Notes: a model not told the origin generated them from the letters alone. Counted from the first letter of the stretch, positions 46,158 through 52,082 are shown. The stretch is 64,000 bases of DNA from Arcobacteraceae bacterium (GCA_963662945.1 OY759974.1:544001-608000); one strand, 5' to 3'. Program-made: numbers and translations.

Positions 46158-46192
46158 TGTGACACTAGATGTGACATAGTTTAGGTAAACTA
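46158..46192 (+). promoter_or_regulatory. TGTGACA-N5-TGTGACAT motif (copy 1) with -10-like TAAACT
   Basis: Exact reverse complement of 51366-51385. Confidence 0.65.
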
Positions 46193-46250
46193 ATGGCATA
46201 AATTGTTATTATTGACTATAACAATTAAACAACAAAAATATGGAGAAAAA

Positions 46251-46697
46251 ATGAAGATTAACTTATCATTAATTGCAACAGGATTTATAGGTATAACATT
46301 AGTAGTTGGATTTACAGGTTGTGGAGCAAAAGGAAAACAATTTTCTGGTTTCAAAACACCATCAGAAGGTAAAGGGATAGTCTATGTATATAGACCATCA
46401 AGTTTCGTAGGTGCTGGAGTTTATTATGATGTCAAAAATAAAACAAACAATGATGAAGTTATTGGAACATTAAGAAATGGTGGTTTTATTTCAAAAGAGA
46501 TGACACCAGGTAAGAAAATTATATGGGCAAAAACTGAAGCTACTTCTACAGTTACAGTAGATGTAAAAGAGAATGATATTGTTTGTGTTCAGGGTAGTGT
46601 TAATATGGGACTTTTAGTGGGTAGACCTGATTTAAAAAATGTAGATAAATCAGTATGTGAAATAGAAATAAAAGATACTAAAGAAAGTATAGAGTGA
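46251..46697 (+). CDS. DUF2846-like lipoprotein
   Basis: Lipobox FTG-C; VYVYRP.SFVG, G.L.NGGF, G..VGRP; GGAG RBS. Confidence 0.8.
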   Translation: MKINLSLIATGFIGITLVVGFTGCGAKGKQFSGFKTPSEGKGIVYVYRPSSFVGAGVYYDVKNKTNNDEVIGTLRNGGFISKEMTPGKKIIWAKTEATSTVTVDVKENDIVCVQGSVNMGLLVGRPDLKNVDKSVCEIEIKDTKESIE

Positions 46698-47894
46698 CTA
46701 AATGTCACTCATATTTTCATAATGTTCAGCTCGTAATCTTTTCGCATACAATAAAAACAAAATACCAATACTAGCTATAAAAGCTGTAAGATACAAAGTG
46801 GTATTATAATTGCCATATTTCTCTATCAAAGCTATACTATAAAGTGGTGCACTCACCTGCCCTATCCCATAAGCAGCTGTCATAGAACCCATAAATATCA
46901 CAGGATTTTTTCCAGCTAACTTTCCACCATAGTGCATAAAAAGAGCCACATGACCTATAAAGGTACTTCCGTACAGAGCTCCACTTAAAAGGTTTAGATA
47001 AATATTATTGCTCAATGTAGGTATCAAGATACCAACTATCTGTAATACAAAAGCTAAGATGATGATATCTACACTATTGTATCTATGGGCAAGTCTCATC
47101 CAAATAATTGCAGAGGGAATACCAGCAACTCCAACCACAAGCCAACCTAAACTCCCATAACCATCAAGCCCCTCTAAAGAGTTAATAATATCTGGAAAAA
47201 ATGTAGCTTGAACCACGAAGCTCACCCCTGCTGTAAAATAGGCTAAGATTAGTAATATAACATAAGGTGTAAACATATCTTTTGAAACTTTATGTTTCGT
47301 TGCCTCTTTTTTTAACTCTTTATCAAAAGATAAAATATAAATAGCATAAATAGACGCAAAAAAAGCAAAGATAGTAAGTACCATCCAAGCATCACTCCAA
47401 GTACCACTTTTCAAAGTGTATTGGGATATGAGTTCACTTACAGTTATAGCAAAACCTATCCCACTAAAATGTATCCCCATAGCTTTTGTTTTATCTTCAT
47501 AGTTGAGTTTCACCATAACTATAGCCCCACCAACTATCAAAACCATAGCAGACCCAAATCCAGCAATTACACGAGATACAAACCATAAAATTTCATTTGT
47601 AGTAGTTGCCAATACAAGTGTAGTTAAGACACTTAAAATTATCCCTATCCTAAAGTATTTCACTTTACTATTGATATCTTTTAAAAATATACTAAATACA
47701 GCACCACTTAGATACCCAGCATAGTTAAAAGAAGCAAAAAGCCCAGCATTGGTCACACTTAAAAAATCTTCAAGCATAGAGGGAAGCAGTGTAGTAAATG
47801 CAAATCTTGCAACCCCAACACCTATGATGATACTTATAATCCCTGCAAGGAGTATATTGAAGTTTTTGTTTTTATCTAATAAATTTATGTTCAT
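46698..47894 (-). CDS. YbfB/YjiJ-family MFS transporter
   Basis: GVARFAFT.LLP.M, NYAGYL.GA, 12-TM pattern. Confidence 0.85.
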   Translation of the reverse strand: MNINLLDKNKNFNILLAGIISIIIGVGVARFAFTTLLPSMLEDFLSVTNAGLFASFNYAGYLSGAVFSIFLKDINSKVKYFRIGIILSVLTTLVLATTTNEILWFVSRVIAGFGSAMVLIVGGAIVMVKLNYEDKTKAMGIHFSGIGFAITVSELISQYTLKSGTWSDAWMVLTIFAFFASIYAIYILSFDKELKKEATKHKVSKDMFTPYVILLILAYFTAGVSFVVQATFFPDIINSLEGLDGYGSLGWLVVGVAGIPSAIIWMRLAHRYNSVDIIILAFVLQIVGILIPTLSNNIYLNLLSGALYGSTFIGHVALFMHYGGKLAGKNPVIFMGSMTAAYGIGQVSAPLYSIALIEKYGNYNTTLYLTAFIASIGILFLLYAKRLRAEHYENMSDI

Positions 47895-47929: not shown

Positions 47930-50900
47930 TTATTTTAATATTTGAATAATTCTTTCCACTATTTGACTAAGCCCTTTATCTAACTCATTTCTATTTGCAA
48001 GGTCTTTTAAAGACAAAATTGTTTCTTCACTTTGTTTAGTGAGTGGATTTATATTTTTTCCATAAGCAAGATATTGAAATTTACCAAGTCCTAAAATAGC
48101 CTCTTGTTTTTCAGTTGGATTTTTTATTGCACTTCCTAATTTATCTAATCCTACAAAATCACTTACTATAACTGGTAAAATCTTCTTATTAGTATTTTGA
48201 GCTATCATCTCCATCCCTTTTACAACCTCCTCTTCTAAAATATAAGCAGATGTAAAAAAGTTAGCTGAAAGCATATAAATTATTAGGTCACTTTCCTCAA
48301 GCTCTCTTTGAATTTGATCATGCCATTTACCAATTTGTATATCCTCACAAGCCCAATTGTCAGCTAAATCAAAAAACTTTAATACACTTAAGTGTTTTCT
48401 TAATTCGTCTCTAAAATCAATATCTTTTCTTGAATATGATATAAATATCTTTTTCATCTTACTTATCTCCTTGTTATCTGAAATATTTTTAAATGCTCTT
48501 GTTGAAAGAACTATACTATTTTCTTTATTTATTTGTTTCTCTTTTATATTAAAAGCGATAATTTGTTCTTTTGTTTTTTCTTCATCTTCTAGTGTTTTAT
48601 AATGAACAAAGTGTTTGTTATTTAACGATATATATAAATCATCAGGAATAACCTTTTTAGTTTGTAATCTTTTTTCTAAAATTTCATTATTCTCTTTATG
48701 TTTGTTCTGTTCTATCTCATTTTCTTTTCTTGATGGATATAATTTACTTTCATATATTTCAATATCATTATATAACATCAATATCTCTTCAAAAAGGTAT
48801 TTCTGTGTCTCATCTATATCTTTTTTTGAAGTTTTATTATCCCCTATTACATATAATTTTATTTTTAATTCTTCAAAATCAAGTCTTATAAATACTTTGA
48901 TATGTTTATTGTTAAGTGTAAAAAGTAGCACATCTTTCCAATATTTCTTTATATCAGGAGTTCTGCCGTAAATACTAATCAATCGATTCATAAATCCAAA
49001 AGGAATAAAATACTCAAACTTCAAAGTTATACAAGGTGTTTGTATATCAAAGATATATAAAAAATCAGAACTATCTTCATTTATCCTAGGAAGATAACTA
49101 GGAACTATATAATACTTTTCGTTTGATATATCATCTGAAAATATCACTTTATTTTCTATAAGCATTAACACCAAATTTTCATCATTACAAAGTTTTCCAA
49201 ATTTATCTTTTGGTACTCTCCCTTTGTATGTAGATAGACTAGATACATCGAATATCTCATCATGTATTTTTTTTAGTGTTTTAGATGGATTAAGCCACGC
49301 TATTTTTGATAGTTCTTTATTATGAGGATAATAAAGTATCAATCCCTGCCTTGCAAGTTGATTTAAAATAAAATTAATTCTCTCTTTTGCATCTGGAAAC
49401 TTATCTACTATTGCAGATATTTCTATAGCATCGGGGCTATTTTGTTCAAAGATATATTTTTCTACTGCTATATCTATAGGGAGCTTTTTTATCATTTCAC
49501 TATTATCTATCTCATTTTTTAAATGTTTTTTTAATGAATCTAAATCTATATCATTAGTATTTTTATTATTTATATGAAACTGTCTATATATTTTTTTTGA
49601 AAGAATTTTATTATCCAAAAACTCTACACCATCATCATCAATATGTGTTTGAATAAGCCAGTACCTATTTAATAATACTTTTTCTTTATCTTTTTTATCA
49701 CCATTACTATTATAATTTTCATCAAAATTCCAAAGCTGTTTTATCCAATAATCTTTTGTAAAATTCTGAGTCTTTTCATTTCTTTTACTTTCATCATCAG
49801 ATAGAGTATTATTATCAGTTTGTTTTTTCCAAAAAATTAAACTTGTGGCATGATTTGTCATAAATGCTTTATATATCCCATGATAATAATCTTGTCCACC
49901 AAAATCATATATAATAGCTTTTTTATTTTCGTTATTTGGATAGGAAACAATATTAAGTATATGAGTACTTCCTGTTTGTGAATTATCTTCTATAAAGTGA
50001 TTTAAAAATTCACTCTTACCTGAGCTGTGATTTCCAACTAGCATTATTTTTTTTATACTTTTTATATCTTTTGCACTTTTACTACTAATACCTTGAAAAT
50101 AATCTTTTAGATCTTGAAGATTATTTGAGTCATAAGTTTCATCAAGCTTGAAATCAATTAATTCTTCTAAAAAAGGATTTTTGTAAATCCGCAATTCATC
50201 AAGTTCAGGTAAAGATTTTAACTCTTTTATACTCTTCATATCACTTATCTGATTCCTTGATAAATCTAATTTTTGTAAAGATTTTAACTCTTTTATACTC
50301 TCTATATCACTTATCTGATTATTTGATAAATATAATGTTTGTAAAGATTTTAACTCTTTTATACTCTTTATATCACTTATCTGATTATTTGATAAATATA
50401 ATGTTTGTAAAGATTTTAACTCTTTTATACTCTTTATATCACTTATCTGATTACTCCATAAATATAATGCTTGTAAAGATTTTAACTCTTTTATACTCTC
50501 TATATCACTTATCTGATTATTTGATAAATATAATGTTTGTAAAGATTTTAACTCTTTTATACTCTTTATATCACTTATCTGATTATCTGATAAATCTAAT
50601 TCTTGTAAAGATTTTAACTCTTTTATACTCTCTATATCATTTATCTTATTATATGATAAATCTAATTCTTGTAAAGATTTTAACTCTTTTATACTCTCTA
50701 TATCACTTATCTGATTATCTGATAAATCTAATTCTTGTAAAGATTTTAACTCTTTTATACTCTCTATATCATTTATCTGATTCCTTGATAAATATAATGT
50801 TTGTAAAGATTTTAACTCTTTTATACTCTTTATATCACTTATCTGATTACTCCATAAATATAATGTTTGTAAAGATTTTAACTCTTTTATACTCTTTATA

Positions 50901-51319
50901 TCACTTATCTGATTACTCCATAAATATAATGTTTGTAAAGATTTTAACTCTTTTATACTCTTTATATCACTTATCTGATTCCTTGATAAATCTAATTTTT
51001 GTAAAGATTTTAACTCTTTTATACTCTCTATATCACTTATCTGATTATCTGATAAATCTAATTTTTGTAAAGATTTTAACTCTTTTATACTCTCTATATC
51101 ACTTATCTGATTATCTGATAAATCTAATTTTTGTAAAGATTTTAACTCTTTTATACTCTCTATATCACTTATCTGATTATTTGATAAATTTAAACCTACT
51201 ATATTATTATCTTTATCTAATACATAGCCACCTTGATAGATGTTATATACCTCTTCTAAAGTAATACCATATGTTTTTTCCAATTCTAATATTAAATTTG
51301 GTTTTTCATTTTTCTTCAT
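47930..51319 (-). CDS. LRR-Roc-COR-TIR protein (bacterial Roco with C-terminal TIR)
   Basis: 15 LRRs; P-loop GNHSSGKS, STH, DFGGQ, THID; COR-like region; TIR IFISYSRKD...LSANFF.S.YI...E (47930-48457). Confidence 0.88.
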   Translation of the reverse strand: MKKNEKPNLILELEKTYGITLEEVYNIYQGGYVLDKDNNIVGLNLSNNQISDIESIKELKSLQKLDLSDNQISDIESIKELKSLQKLDLSDNQISDIESIKELKSLQKLDLSRNQISDIKSIKELKSLQTLYLWSNQISDIKSIKELKSLQTLYLWSNQISDIKSIKELKSLQTLYLSRNQINDIESIKELKSLQELDLSDNQISDIESIKELKSLQELDLSYNKINDIESIKELKSLQELDLSDNQISDIKSIKELKSLQTLYLSNNQISDIESIKELKSLQALYLWSNQISDIKSIKELKSLQTLYLSNNQISDIKSIKELKSLQTLYLSNNQISDIESIKELKSLQKLDLSRNQISDMKSIKELKSLPELDELRIYKNPFLEELIDFKLDETYDSNNLQDLKDYFQGISSKSAKDIKSIKKIMLVGNHSSGKSEFLNHFIEDNSQTGSTHILNIVSYPNNENKKAIIYDFGGQDYYHGIYKAFMTNHATSLIFWKKQTDNNTLSDDESKRNEKTQNFTKDYWIKQLWNFDENYNSNGDKKDKEKVLLNRYWLIQTHIDDDGVEFLDNKILSKKIYRQFHINNKNTNDIDLDSLKKHLKNEIDNSEMIKKLPIDIAVEKYIFEQNSPDAIEISAIVDKFPDAKERINFILNQLARQGLILYYPHNKELSKIAWLNPSKTLKKIHDEIFDVSSLSTYKGRVPKDKFGKLCNDENLVLMLIENKVIFSDDISNEKYYIVPSYLPRINEDSSDFLYIFDIQTPCITLKFEYFIPFGFMNRLISIYGRTPDIKKYWKDVLLFTLNNKHIKVFIRLDFEELKIKLYVIGDNKTSKKDIDETQKYLFEEILMLYNDIEIYESKLYPSRKENEIEQNKHKENNEILEKRLQTKKVIPDDLYISLNNKHFVHYKTLEDEEKTKEQIIAFNIKEKQINKENSIVLSTRAFKNISDNKEISKMKKIFISYSRKDIDFRDELRKHLSVLKFFDLADNWACEDIQIGKWHDQIQRELEESDLIIYMLSANFFTSAYILEEEVVKGMEMIAQNTNKKILPVIVSDFVGLDKLGSAIKNPTEKQEAILGLGKFQYLAYGKNINPLTKQSEETILSLKDLANRNELDKGLSQIVERIIQILK
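50213..51202 (-). repeat. 15 x 66-bp coding tandem repeat (22-aa LRR)
   Basis: Unit LQxLxLxxNQISDIxSIKELKS with an almost invariant DNA framework. Confidence 0.95.
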
Positions 51320-51351: not shown

Positions 51352-51385
51352 ATTTTATCATATCAATGTCACATCTAGTGTCACA
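51352..51385 (-). promoter_or_regulatory. TGTGACA-N5-TGTGACAT motif (copy 2) with extended -10 TGATAAAAT
   Basis: Same 20-mer and same spacing to the -10 hexamer as copy 1. Confidence 0.65.
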
Positions 51386-52082
51386 AAAAATTTAAACTTC
51401 TATTTTCTTTTAAAAAGCACCCAACACCATAAGGCTTTTTAGAATAATAATGTTTCCCATGCTCAACAATAAGTGCATGGTATTCTTGATATATTTTTCT
51501 TCTTTCATCTGTATCTTCTATCTCTTTTTCTAAAGCATCTTCAAATATCTTTTTTATATCCCTATACTTAGACTTTTCATCAATCAAACCAAGTTCTAAA
51601 AGCAATCTTTTAGTATAGGCATCTACTTTAAATTGCGCTTGATTATAACCATATAACAAAATAGAATCTGCTGTTTCTTCCCCTATTCCTTTTACTTTTA
51701 AAAGCTCTTCCCTACTTGGAACAGCCCCATTTAATGTATCAAAAAACTGTATAAACTCCAAAATATAATTTGCTTTTTGGTTAAAATACCCTGCTGGTTT
51801 TATAAGTGTTTTAAGTTTCTCTACATCCATAGCTTTTATAGCAACACTAGTGATACAATTATTTTCTTGTAAGTTGTTCATAGCTTTTGTAACAGATATA
51901 AAAGTAGTATTTTGCGTCAAAATTGACCCCAAGGCAACTTCAAATATTTGATCACTATTTTTAGGATAGCTATAATCATTTGGATGATAACCTATATCTA
52001 AAAAAGGCCACCAACCTTGTGCCCCATAATGTTTAAAAAGTGTTAAATAAATTTTGTAAATACTATTTGAAGTTTCCATCAA
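51381..52082 (-). CDS. HhH-GPD endonuclease III-related protein
   Basis: GSILTQNT, IKPAGYFNQKA, LLKVKGIGEETADSILLY, VDAYTKR, YQEYHALIVEHGK. Confidence 0.85.
   Translation of the reverse strand: MMETSNSIYKIYLTLFKHYGAQGWWPFLDIGYHPNDYSYPKNSDQIFEVALGSILTQNTTFISVTKAMNNLQENNCITSVAIKAMDVEKLKTLIKPAGYFNQKANYILEFIQFFDTLNGAVPSREELLKVKGIGEETADSILLYGYNQAQFKVDAYTKRLLLELGLIDEKSKYRDIKKIFEDALEKEIEDTDERRKIYQEYHALIVEHGKHYYSKKPYGVGCFLKENRSLNFL

Follow-up and report, generated by a model that had tools for sequence, protein, structure and literature searches.

What kind of protein carries a run of almost identical leucine-rich repeat (LRR) units that differ from one another chiefly at a few positions, and what keeps those positions different? 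The question is raised by an open reading frame (ORF) in a 64,000-nucleotide stretch of DNA from an Arcobacteraceae bacterium (GCA_963662945.1 OY759974.1:544001-608000; the whole stretch is hereafter referred to as the window). This ORF, P0001, encodes a single-gene LRR-Roc-COR-TIR protein, that is, a prokaryotic Roco protein or AP-GTPase; its host genome (G000) is complete, with 2.5 Mb in a single contig, and the gene occurs once per genome. In the reading that we prefer, with a probability of roughly 0.6, the array is the LRR arm of a likely cytoplasmic anti-invader (probably anti-phage) receptor, in which recombination between repeats likely rewrites the units and selection likely keeps the face residues different. 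The evolutionary part, in which the array is rewritten with its face diversity kept, is highly probable; the defence function is the favoured but less secure part. The features discussed below are located in Table 1.

Tandem Repeats Finder delimited the repeat at 50209-51193 (period 66, 14.9 copies, 94% matches, no indels), and in frame it resolves into units of 22 amino acids. The original prediction, made from the sequence alone, held that these units have almost no synonymous differences, that a few module types recur out of order and that variation is concentrated in the segment xLxLxxN; all three statements were borne out. Synonymous codon variants were found in 0 of the 22 codon columns of units 2–15. 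The modules were located in units 4 and 15 (KLDLSR), 5, 6 and 12 (LYLWS), 11, 13 and 14 (TLYLSN) and 7 (TLYLSR), and every predicted allele is present, both the K/T/E/A, D/Y, S/W and D/R/S/Y/N sets and the minor E/K, S/N, Q/K and I/M changes. The variable codons of xLxLxxNx are the first, third, fifth and sixth (and the eighth), whereas the framework codons are homogenised. In units 2–14, 8 of the 12 nucleotides in the four face x codons of xLxLxxN vary, as compared with 3/30 in the ten other x codons and 0/24 in the eight core codons (face versus other x codons, Fisher p=0.0005; p=0.003 with unit 15 included). As these face codons were chosen after seeing the data, we used the array of a congener (G013) as an independent test, and there 10/12 nucleotides vary at the face and 1/30 at the other x codons (p=5e-7). 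In the AlphaFold2 model, the x-L-x of every unit forms a strand (pLDDT about 87-98), whose x side chains presumably line the concave face, as in standard LRR geometry. An antisense ORF of 335 amino acids over the array (50257-51264, plus strand) is a by-product, the repeat being stop-free in that frame.

Repeat shuffling or conversion had been proposed as the source of this variation, and the units themselves support the proposal. They are mosaic: of 91 pairings of variable sites, 21 violate the four-gamete condition, and the best tree obtained for the 10 unit haplotypes by a heuristic parsimony search requires 18 steps versus a minimum of 12. Recurrent mutation could account for part of the four-gamete failures and of the extra steps. 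The strongest comparison is offered by the congener. A search with Roc-COR-TIR gave full-length matches in 2 of 81 genomes (G000 and G013) and TIR-only matches in 3, and a contig scan of 122 candidates gave 2 matches, the congener and a weak one; the gene is an accessory insertion. In G013, it lies between the same HhH-GPD and MFS genes, and its array has 12 units as against 15 here, in a different species. None of these units is identical to any of G000, no six-residue face motif is common to the internal units of the two arrays, and tyrosine at x3, which occurs in 7/14 units here, is absent there, whereas the consensus of framework codons 9–22 shows 0 differences between the two.

The remainder of the gene provides a clock for these changes. 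Roc-COR of G000 and G013 is 96% identical, with a proportion of synonymous differences (pS) of 0.046, and the N-terminal cap differs at 7.8% of synonymous sites; in the flanking genes the corresponding values are 35-59% (8/8 genes). This gap between Roc-COR and the flanks indicates that the arrays turned over within a short time. The promoter, LRR and Roc-COR of both species appear to share a recent ancestry, by interspecies transfer or from a common donor, with the array rewritten since, and the rewriting would have taken about one-tenth of the synonymous divergence of the host species or less. These comparisons point to an array that turns over fast through intragenic recombination while diversity is kept at its face. 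Both species share the allele codons TGG AGT and AGG, and in G013 certain face alleles are accompanied by the codons CTA and GAC. The original prediction called the shuffling ongoing; what we see is a change between two species, whose arrays are wholly different, and not one within a population.

We then have to consider whether the pattern is peculiar to this pair. Among 120 homologues, 62 contain at least 6 consecutive 22-residue units, and the face is more variable than the other x positions in 51 of these 62; homogenised arrays number 12/62, every one homogenised to its own framework. At the DNA level, arrays were found in 49/82 loci and 44 were distinct (the first and last units were dropped, and only identical copies were removed as kin). 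The proportion of nonsynonymous differences (pN) at the face was 0.33-0.73 in 44/44 distinct arrays, and framework pS ranged from 0.00 to 0.88. In the 8 homogenised DNA arrays, including those of G000 and G013, replacement changes per site, as a minimum count, came to 1.40 at the face, 0.25 at the other x positions and 0.03 in the core, and synonymous ones to 1.13, 0.50 and 0.31, respectively. The G000 array itself combines a framework pS of 0.00 with a face pN of 0.35. The face thus resists the homogenisation that levels the framework around it. In two homologues, P0039 and P0053, the N-terminal cap and LRR block are duplicated in tandem, a second route of sensor-arm growth.

The effector end of the protein has changed as well. 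In the DNA alignment, the TIR-coding regions of G000 and G013 show 49% synonymous difference, which sets in abruptly 11-12 codons inside the domain. The G000 TIR scores 74-75% to three distant homologues versus 67% to the G013 TIR, and an approximately unbiased test on 18 proteins rejected the TIRs of the two alleles as sisters (p=0.002), whereas their Roc-COR regions were sisters with full support. One TIR was swapped for another between lineages, with either lineage as the possible recipient.

The architecture of P0001 bears on what such a protein may do. Pfam matched LRR_4 (E 1e-98), Roc (residues 424-505, E 2.7e-9) and TIR_2 (residues 958-1054, E 3.7e-11). The AlphaFold2 model, built on a 40-sequence alignment, has a mean pLDDT of 86.4 and a pTM of 0.74, and its top Foldseek match is the Chlorobium tepidum LRR-Roc-COR structure 6hlu (E 4e-44, 916 columns, TM 0.63 of target). 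Pfam gave no COR match on P0001 itself; a COR region after Roc was recognised by the structural match to 6hlu together with the COR families PF16095 and PF25497 on several homologues. In the conservation alignment, which comprised 40 of the 120 listed homologues, the GTPase residues G429, G434, K435, T452 (the switch I threonine of Roc) and D472-Q476 and the TIR residues E1031 and S1024 were invariant (40/40). E1031 sits after the S-x-aromatic motif of helix C, which we take to be the expected place of the catalytic glutamate in an NAD-cleaving TIR. PADLOC matched only the TIR of P0001 (ThsB1, E 6e-14). Neither a signal peptide nor a membrane helix was found in P0001, whose highest 19-residue hydropathy, 1.43, lies in the TIR. 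We rejected assignment to the STAND-type bacterial NOD-like receptors (NLRs) such as Avs and bNACHT, the NTPase of P0001 being Roc, with no NACHT or NB-ARC match in the protein.

These features are those of a predicted class. Kaur et al. 2021 (PMC8195603) predicted AP-GTPase-COR proteins to be counter-invader systems with 'rapidly evolving' LRRs and with TIR among at least 24 effectors, in which LRR, AP-GTPase, COR and a C-terminal effector are joined in one chain, the position of the effector being variable there. P0001 has N-terminal LRRs, an intact Roc, a COR and a C-terminal effector that varies among relatives, and on this basis we assign it to the class, its activity being predicted like that of the class. 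The original prediction had dealt with the repeats and not with the Roc-COR-TIR protein to which they belong. Section 15 of that paper gives neither a DNA-level account of the repeats nor an experiment; in the present case each genome carries a single copy, and a TIR has been replaced by another TIR.

The following mechanism would account for these properties. The identical framework tracts of 29-42 nt would let units recombine by unequal crossover, slippage and short conversion, and such recombination would alter the number and order of units, remove synonymous differences and generate hybrids, TLYLSR among them; the face would escape homogenisation because differing residues are favoured there. 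In the C. tepidum Roco protein, the closed dimer leaves no room for a nanobody that sits inside the curve of the LRR, and the LRR moves outwards when GTP binds (PMC11052575). A foreign protein on the concave face of P0001 may likewise pry the LRR off the closed Roc-COR and favour the GTP state, whereupon the TIR domains would be brought together and, by cleaving NAD+ or producing a cyclic ADP-ribose signal, stop the infected cell. The fact that two near-identical Roc-COR modules accept entirely different faces speaks for tuning of the face to an external ligand and not to COR.

The site of insertion was compared among congeners. The HhH-GPD orthologue is present in 13 congeners, where it is followed directly by MFS in 4 (the empty site), by a defence-type gene in 3 and by another gene in 5, the remaining one being cut off. 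In three congeners the slot holds Drt8 and SoFic, PDC-S73 (nSTAND3) and SoFic, or a RecQ-UvrD helicase and SoFic, and we regard this association with defence genes as a hint only. These slots, downstream of HhH-GPD at loci L120, L121 and L122 (G015, G011 and G020), hold differing defence genes, each then followed by SoFic; in L120 and L121, a 657-residue ORF with no Pfam or PADLOC match comes after the slot genes. A second variable slot lies beyond MFS, occupied in the window by a DUF2846 lipoprotein gene (46203-46697) and in G013 by a DUF1016 N-terminal gene (L007:6104-6691). Between its exonuclease and HhH-GPD genes, G013 carries an additional DEAD-box-like ORF.

Upstream of P0001 we recognised a candidate promoter box with a direct repeat (Table 1), of which the exact form occurs at 9 sites in G000 (the second one in the window at 46158-46191, plus strand) and in 14/28 genomes of the genus, the reversed control giving 0. 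It is absent at the empty site and so arrived with the gene. One subfamily of OmpR-type regulators is present in 18/28 genomes, including 14/14 box-positive ones, and the box occurs in 0/10 genomes without this regulator, related genomes not being independent in these counts. The synthase FeeM is found in 11/14 box-positive versus 2/14 box-negative genomes. In G013 and G015, boxes flank this OmpR-type regulator, its 7TMR-DISM histidine kinase and a FeeM N-acyl amino acid synthase; the row of kinase, regulator and FeeM is at L137:2034-5700 in G013 and at 316833-320256 of contig C1 in G000 (G000:C1:316833-320256). In G000, the orthologous locus lacks the exact box, but a version with an 11-bp period stands at a paralogue. 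P0001 may be under the control of this OmpR-type system. The box may define an uncharacterised regulon, perhaps linked to an autoinducer, the layout of kinase, regulator and FeeM being quorum-sensing-like. A WYL activator, suggested by the geometry known from PafBC, was rejected, as G000 has no WYL gene. The direct repeat described in PMC12936845 is a different one.

A wider proposal can be built on these observations, and we offer it tentatively. P0001 might be a one-gene receptor that makes new specificities continuously, with no reverse transcriptase or donor cassettes, by recombining a small alphabet of face modules, a process driven by its own identical LRR frameworks; its sensor-switch cassette might move between species via the defence slot, its TIR might be swapped separately, and its expression might be tied to the OmpR-type system linked to the N-acyl amino acid synthase, possibly in a density-dependent manner.

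Several results weigh against the anti-invader reading. The TIR of P0001 had no relevant sequence match to a solved TIR in the PDB, so that E1031 stands without a sequence alignment to one. No array variants within the population were seen in sequencing run X2. Among the protein arrays of the family, 11/62 do not show a face more variable than the other x positions. Within the face, dN/dS is only about 1.2, the large contrast being only with framework synonymous sites (0.31-0.50); the raised synonymous rate in face codons fits hitchhiking and weakens a formal claim of positive selection. No defence genes flank P0001 in the window, where its neighbours are housekeeping genes by Pfam. The defence genes in the slot come from three congeners that were chosen for scanning by eye, look closely related and were compared without a control slot. 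The other genes behind the box mostly concern the envelope (lipoprotein, pilin-like, transglutaminase-like and chemoreceptor genes) and not defence. Finally, we found in the literature neither an experiment on such a protein nor a bacterial Roco tested in defence, subscription papers being outside the search; one apparent lead, the preprint bioRxiv 10.1101/2025.02.28.640651, proved irrelevant, as LRR stands there for the initials of an author. A search of the same kind, again outside subscription papers and supplements, found no DNA-level study of bacterial Roco repeats or of concerted evolution of bacterial LRR units.

The envelope genes that share the box, together with the lack of a defence island around the gene, would suit a variable sensor in a two-component regulon whose ligand is not a phage product, but a stress signal or a protein of a host, partner or competitor; the LRR also resembles those of internalins, in a match below the cut-off. 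We consider this alternative unlikely, since P0001 has no signal peptide or membrane helix, and both the TIR exchange and the slot with defence genes in congeners fit conflict with mobile elements.

Neutral repeat dynamics, in which recent duplications homogenise the units and the face x positions vary as the least constrained ones, deserve somewhat less credence. Neighbouring units do resemble each other a little more than units paired at random (3.58 vs 4.64 nt, p=0.042), the dN/dS of the face against its own synonymous sites is modest, and homogenisation is general in G000, whose other tandem arrays are 98-100% identical. However, synonymous sites, the freest of all, are flat in the framework of this array while its face varies; the ten other x positions do not vary freely here, as they do in the family's old arrays; and the contrast between face and framework recurs in 8/8 homogenised arrays with different frameworks.

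Much less probable is the writing of face codons by hypermutation like that of diversity-generating retroelements or by cassette insertion like that of lamprey variable lymphocyte receptors (VLRs). Adenine is among the alleles at 11/14 variable sites, and synonymous change is raised in face codons too, as either process might produce. Yet the unit is about half adenine, an RVT_1 reverse transcriptase was found in 0/2 complete genomes carrying the gene, no template or donor was found outside the array (the best outside match being 49 nt at 76%), and the allele codons common to both species indicate reuse and not fresh mutagenesis. Such writing is therefore largely refuted.

As for the assembly, read depth agrees with the assembled repeat copy numbers in runs X1 and X2. 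For this comparison, the depth of each repeat contig was divided by the multiplicity that the assembly predicts for its 31-mers. In X1, depth per expected copy was 135-145 in 6/6 listed pieces versus 129-141 in the flanks, and in X2 it was 55-57 (6/6 listed pieces) versus 49-51. Because depth per copy is flat and close to that of the flanks in both runs, the copy number and composition of the array are real. X1 and X2 are probably the assembly's own sample and support copy number and composition, not independently the order of units, and no piece spans the array. In run X4, from another sample, one 60-nt contig with one different letter had a depth of 7.5, and depth in this run varies too much for a different array to be called. 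Run X9 carries the congener TIR allele at the listed places, with short and shallow array pieces, and run X10 gave only short chance-like pieces. Paralogues suspected from loose ends in the read tables proved to be other places of the same genome (6/6 checked). That the repeats were mis-ordered or mis-counted is hardly credible: no contig spans the array and depth per expected copy is uneven in X4 (469-1028), but the single-copy flanks are uneven there too (805-2030), and the flat depth in X1 and X2 is joined by a single-contig genome, a frame open through all units, the uniqueness of each 132-mer of the array and the same pattern in the independent genome G013.

Returning to the anti-invader reading, we compared the array with known variable repeat receptors, two of which the original prediction had invoked. 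In lamprey VLRs, a constant scaffold bears a concave LRR face that is variable, and the receptor is assembled somatically from flanking donor cassettes. The likeness of P0001 extends to the variable face on a constant scaffold and ends at the cassettes: none was found elsewhere in the genome, where the one other LRR gene has 32% protein identity, so that this analogy fails. The analogy to fungal NLRs fared better, as the array appears to work like concerted, face-selected repeats, with recombination between units and with unit number and order differing between the alleles of the two species. The WD, ANK and TPR repeats of these NLRs, as in Podospora nwd/HET, undergo concerted evolution and repeat-number change with selection at about four face positions per repeat (PMC4986451). 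They differ from the present case in their STAND ATPase, in their repeat types (WD/ANK/TPR) and in exchange also between paralogues, which G000 lacks. The brown algal LRR-ROCO proteins are likewise proposed immune receptors with shuffled LRR units and positively selected concave-face sites (PMC3341825, PMC11378527), but there one LRR occupies each 72-nt exon, shuffling proceeds through introns and splicing, the family is large and TIR is absent, whereas here the ORF is continuous. The C. tepidum Roco protein (PDB 6hlu, 8r4b; PMC11052575) is the top structural match over LRR-Roc-COR and has the same kind of LRR arm; its identity is about 29%, and its solved chains cover LRR-Roc-COR only.

What the present locus adds is a dated allele pair in which sensor and effector turn over independently. 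Bacterial Roco proteins serve as structural models for LRRK2, and the two natural alleles, with near-identical Roc-COR and a wholly different LRR face and TIR, constitute a ready-made swap experiment. If the defence function is true, P0001 would parallel the NLRs, with a GTPase as its switch and an inherent means of changing specificity; if specificity also changes continuously, bacterial homologues of LRRK2 would function as fast-diversifying phage sensors.

Table 1. Features of the P0001 locus, in window coordinates
Feature	Coordinates	Strand	Basis
LRR-Roc-COR-TIR ORF P0001, 1129 aa	47930..51319	-	Pfam, Foldseek
N-terminal LRR cap, residues 1-41, no signal-peptide-like stretch	51197..51319	-	sequence, model
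15 x 66-bp LRR units (22 aa)	50207..51196	-	TRF (Tandem Repeats Finder), in-frame units, model
Degenerate last LRR, C-cap and linker to Roc, residues 372-421	50057..50206	-	units, model
Roc GTPase, about residues 424-605	49505..50050	-	Pfam Roc, invariant motifs
Roc motifs: P-loop GNHSSGKS; T452; DFGGQ; THID	50012-50035 (P-loop); 49892-49906 (DFGGQ); 49637-49648 (THID)	-	sequence
COR region, about residues 610-950, bounds approximate	48470..49492	-	structure match, COR families on homologues
TIR domain, residues 955-1129, E1031 invariant; lineage-exchange junction near 48420	47930..48457	-	TIR_2, ThsB1
Predicted promoter TGTGACA-N5-TGTGAC-N10-TA-N3-T (direct repeat)	51352..51385	-	recurrence in genus
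HhH-GPD glycosylase gene, bordering the insertion slot upstream, outside the system	51381..52082	-	
MFS transporter gene, downstream border, not part of system	46698..47894	-	

Elsewhere in G000, two further tandem arrays, of 36 x 315 bp (G000:C1:953374-964719) and 15 x 312 bp (G000:C1:1640354-1645038), are 100% identical in the assembly; they resemble giant adhesin repeats, and their copy numbers are given as assembled. An array of a 72-bp repeat (G000:C1:295720-296282, about 8 copies, 82% identity) apparently belongs to another surface-repeat gene. A stand-alone LRR protein of 330 residues, with old, non-homogenised repeats, is encoded at G000:C1:2307276-2308268, beside nitrogen-fixation-like and chemotaxis genes.

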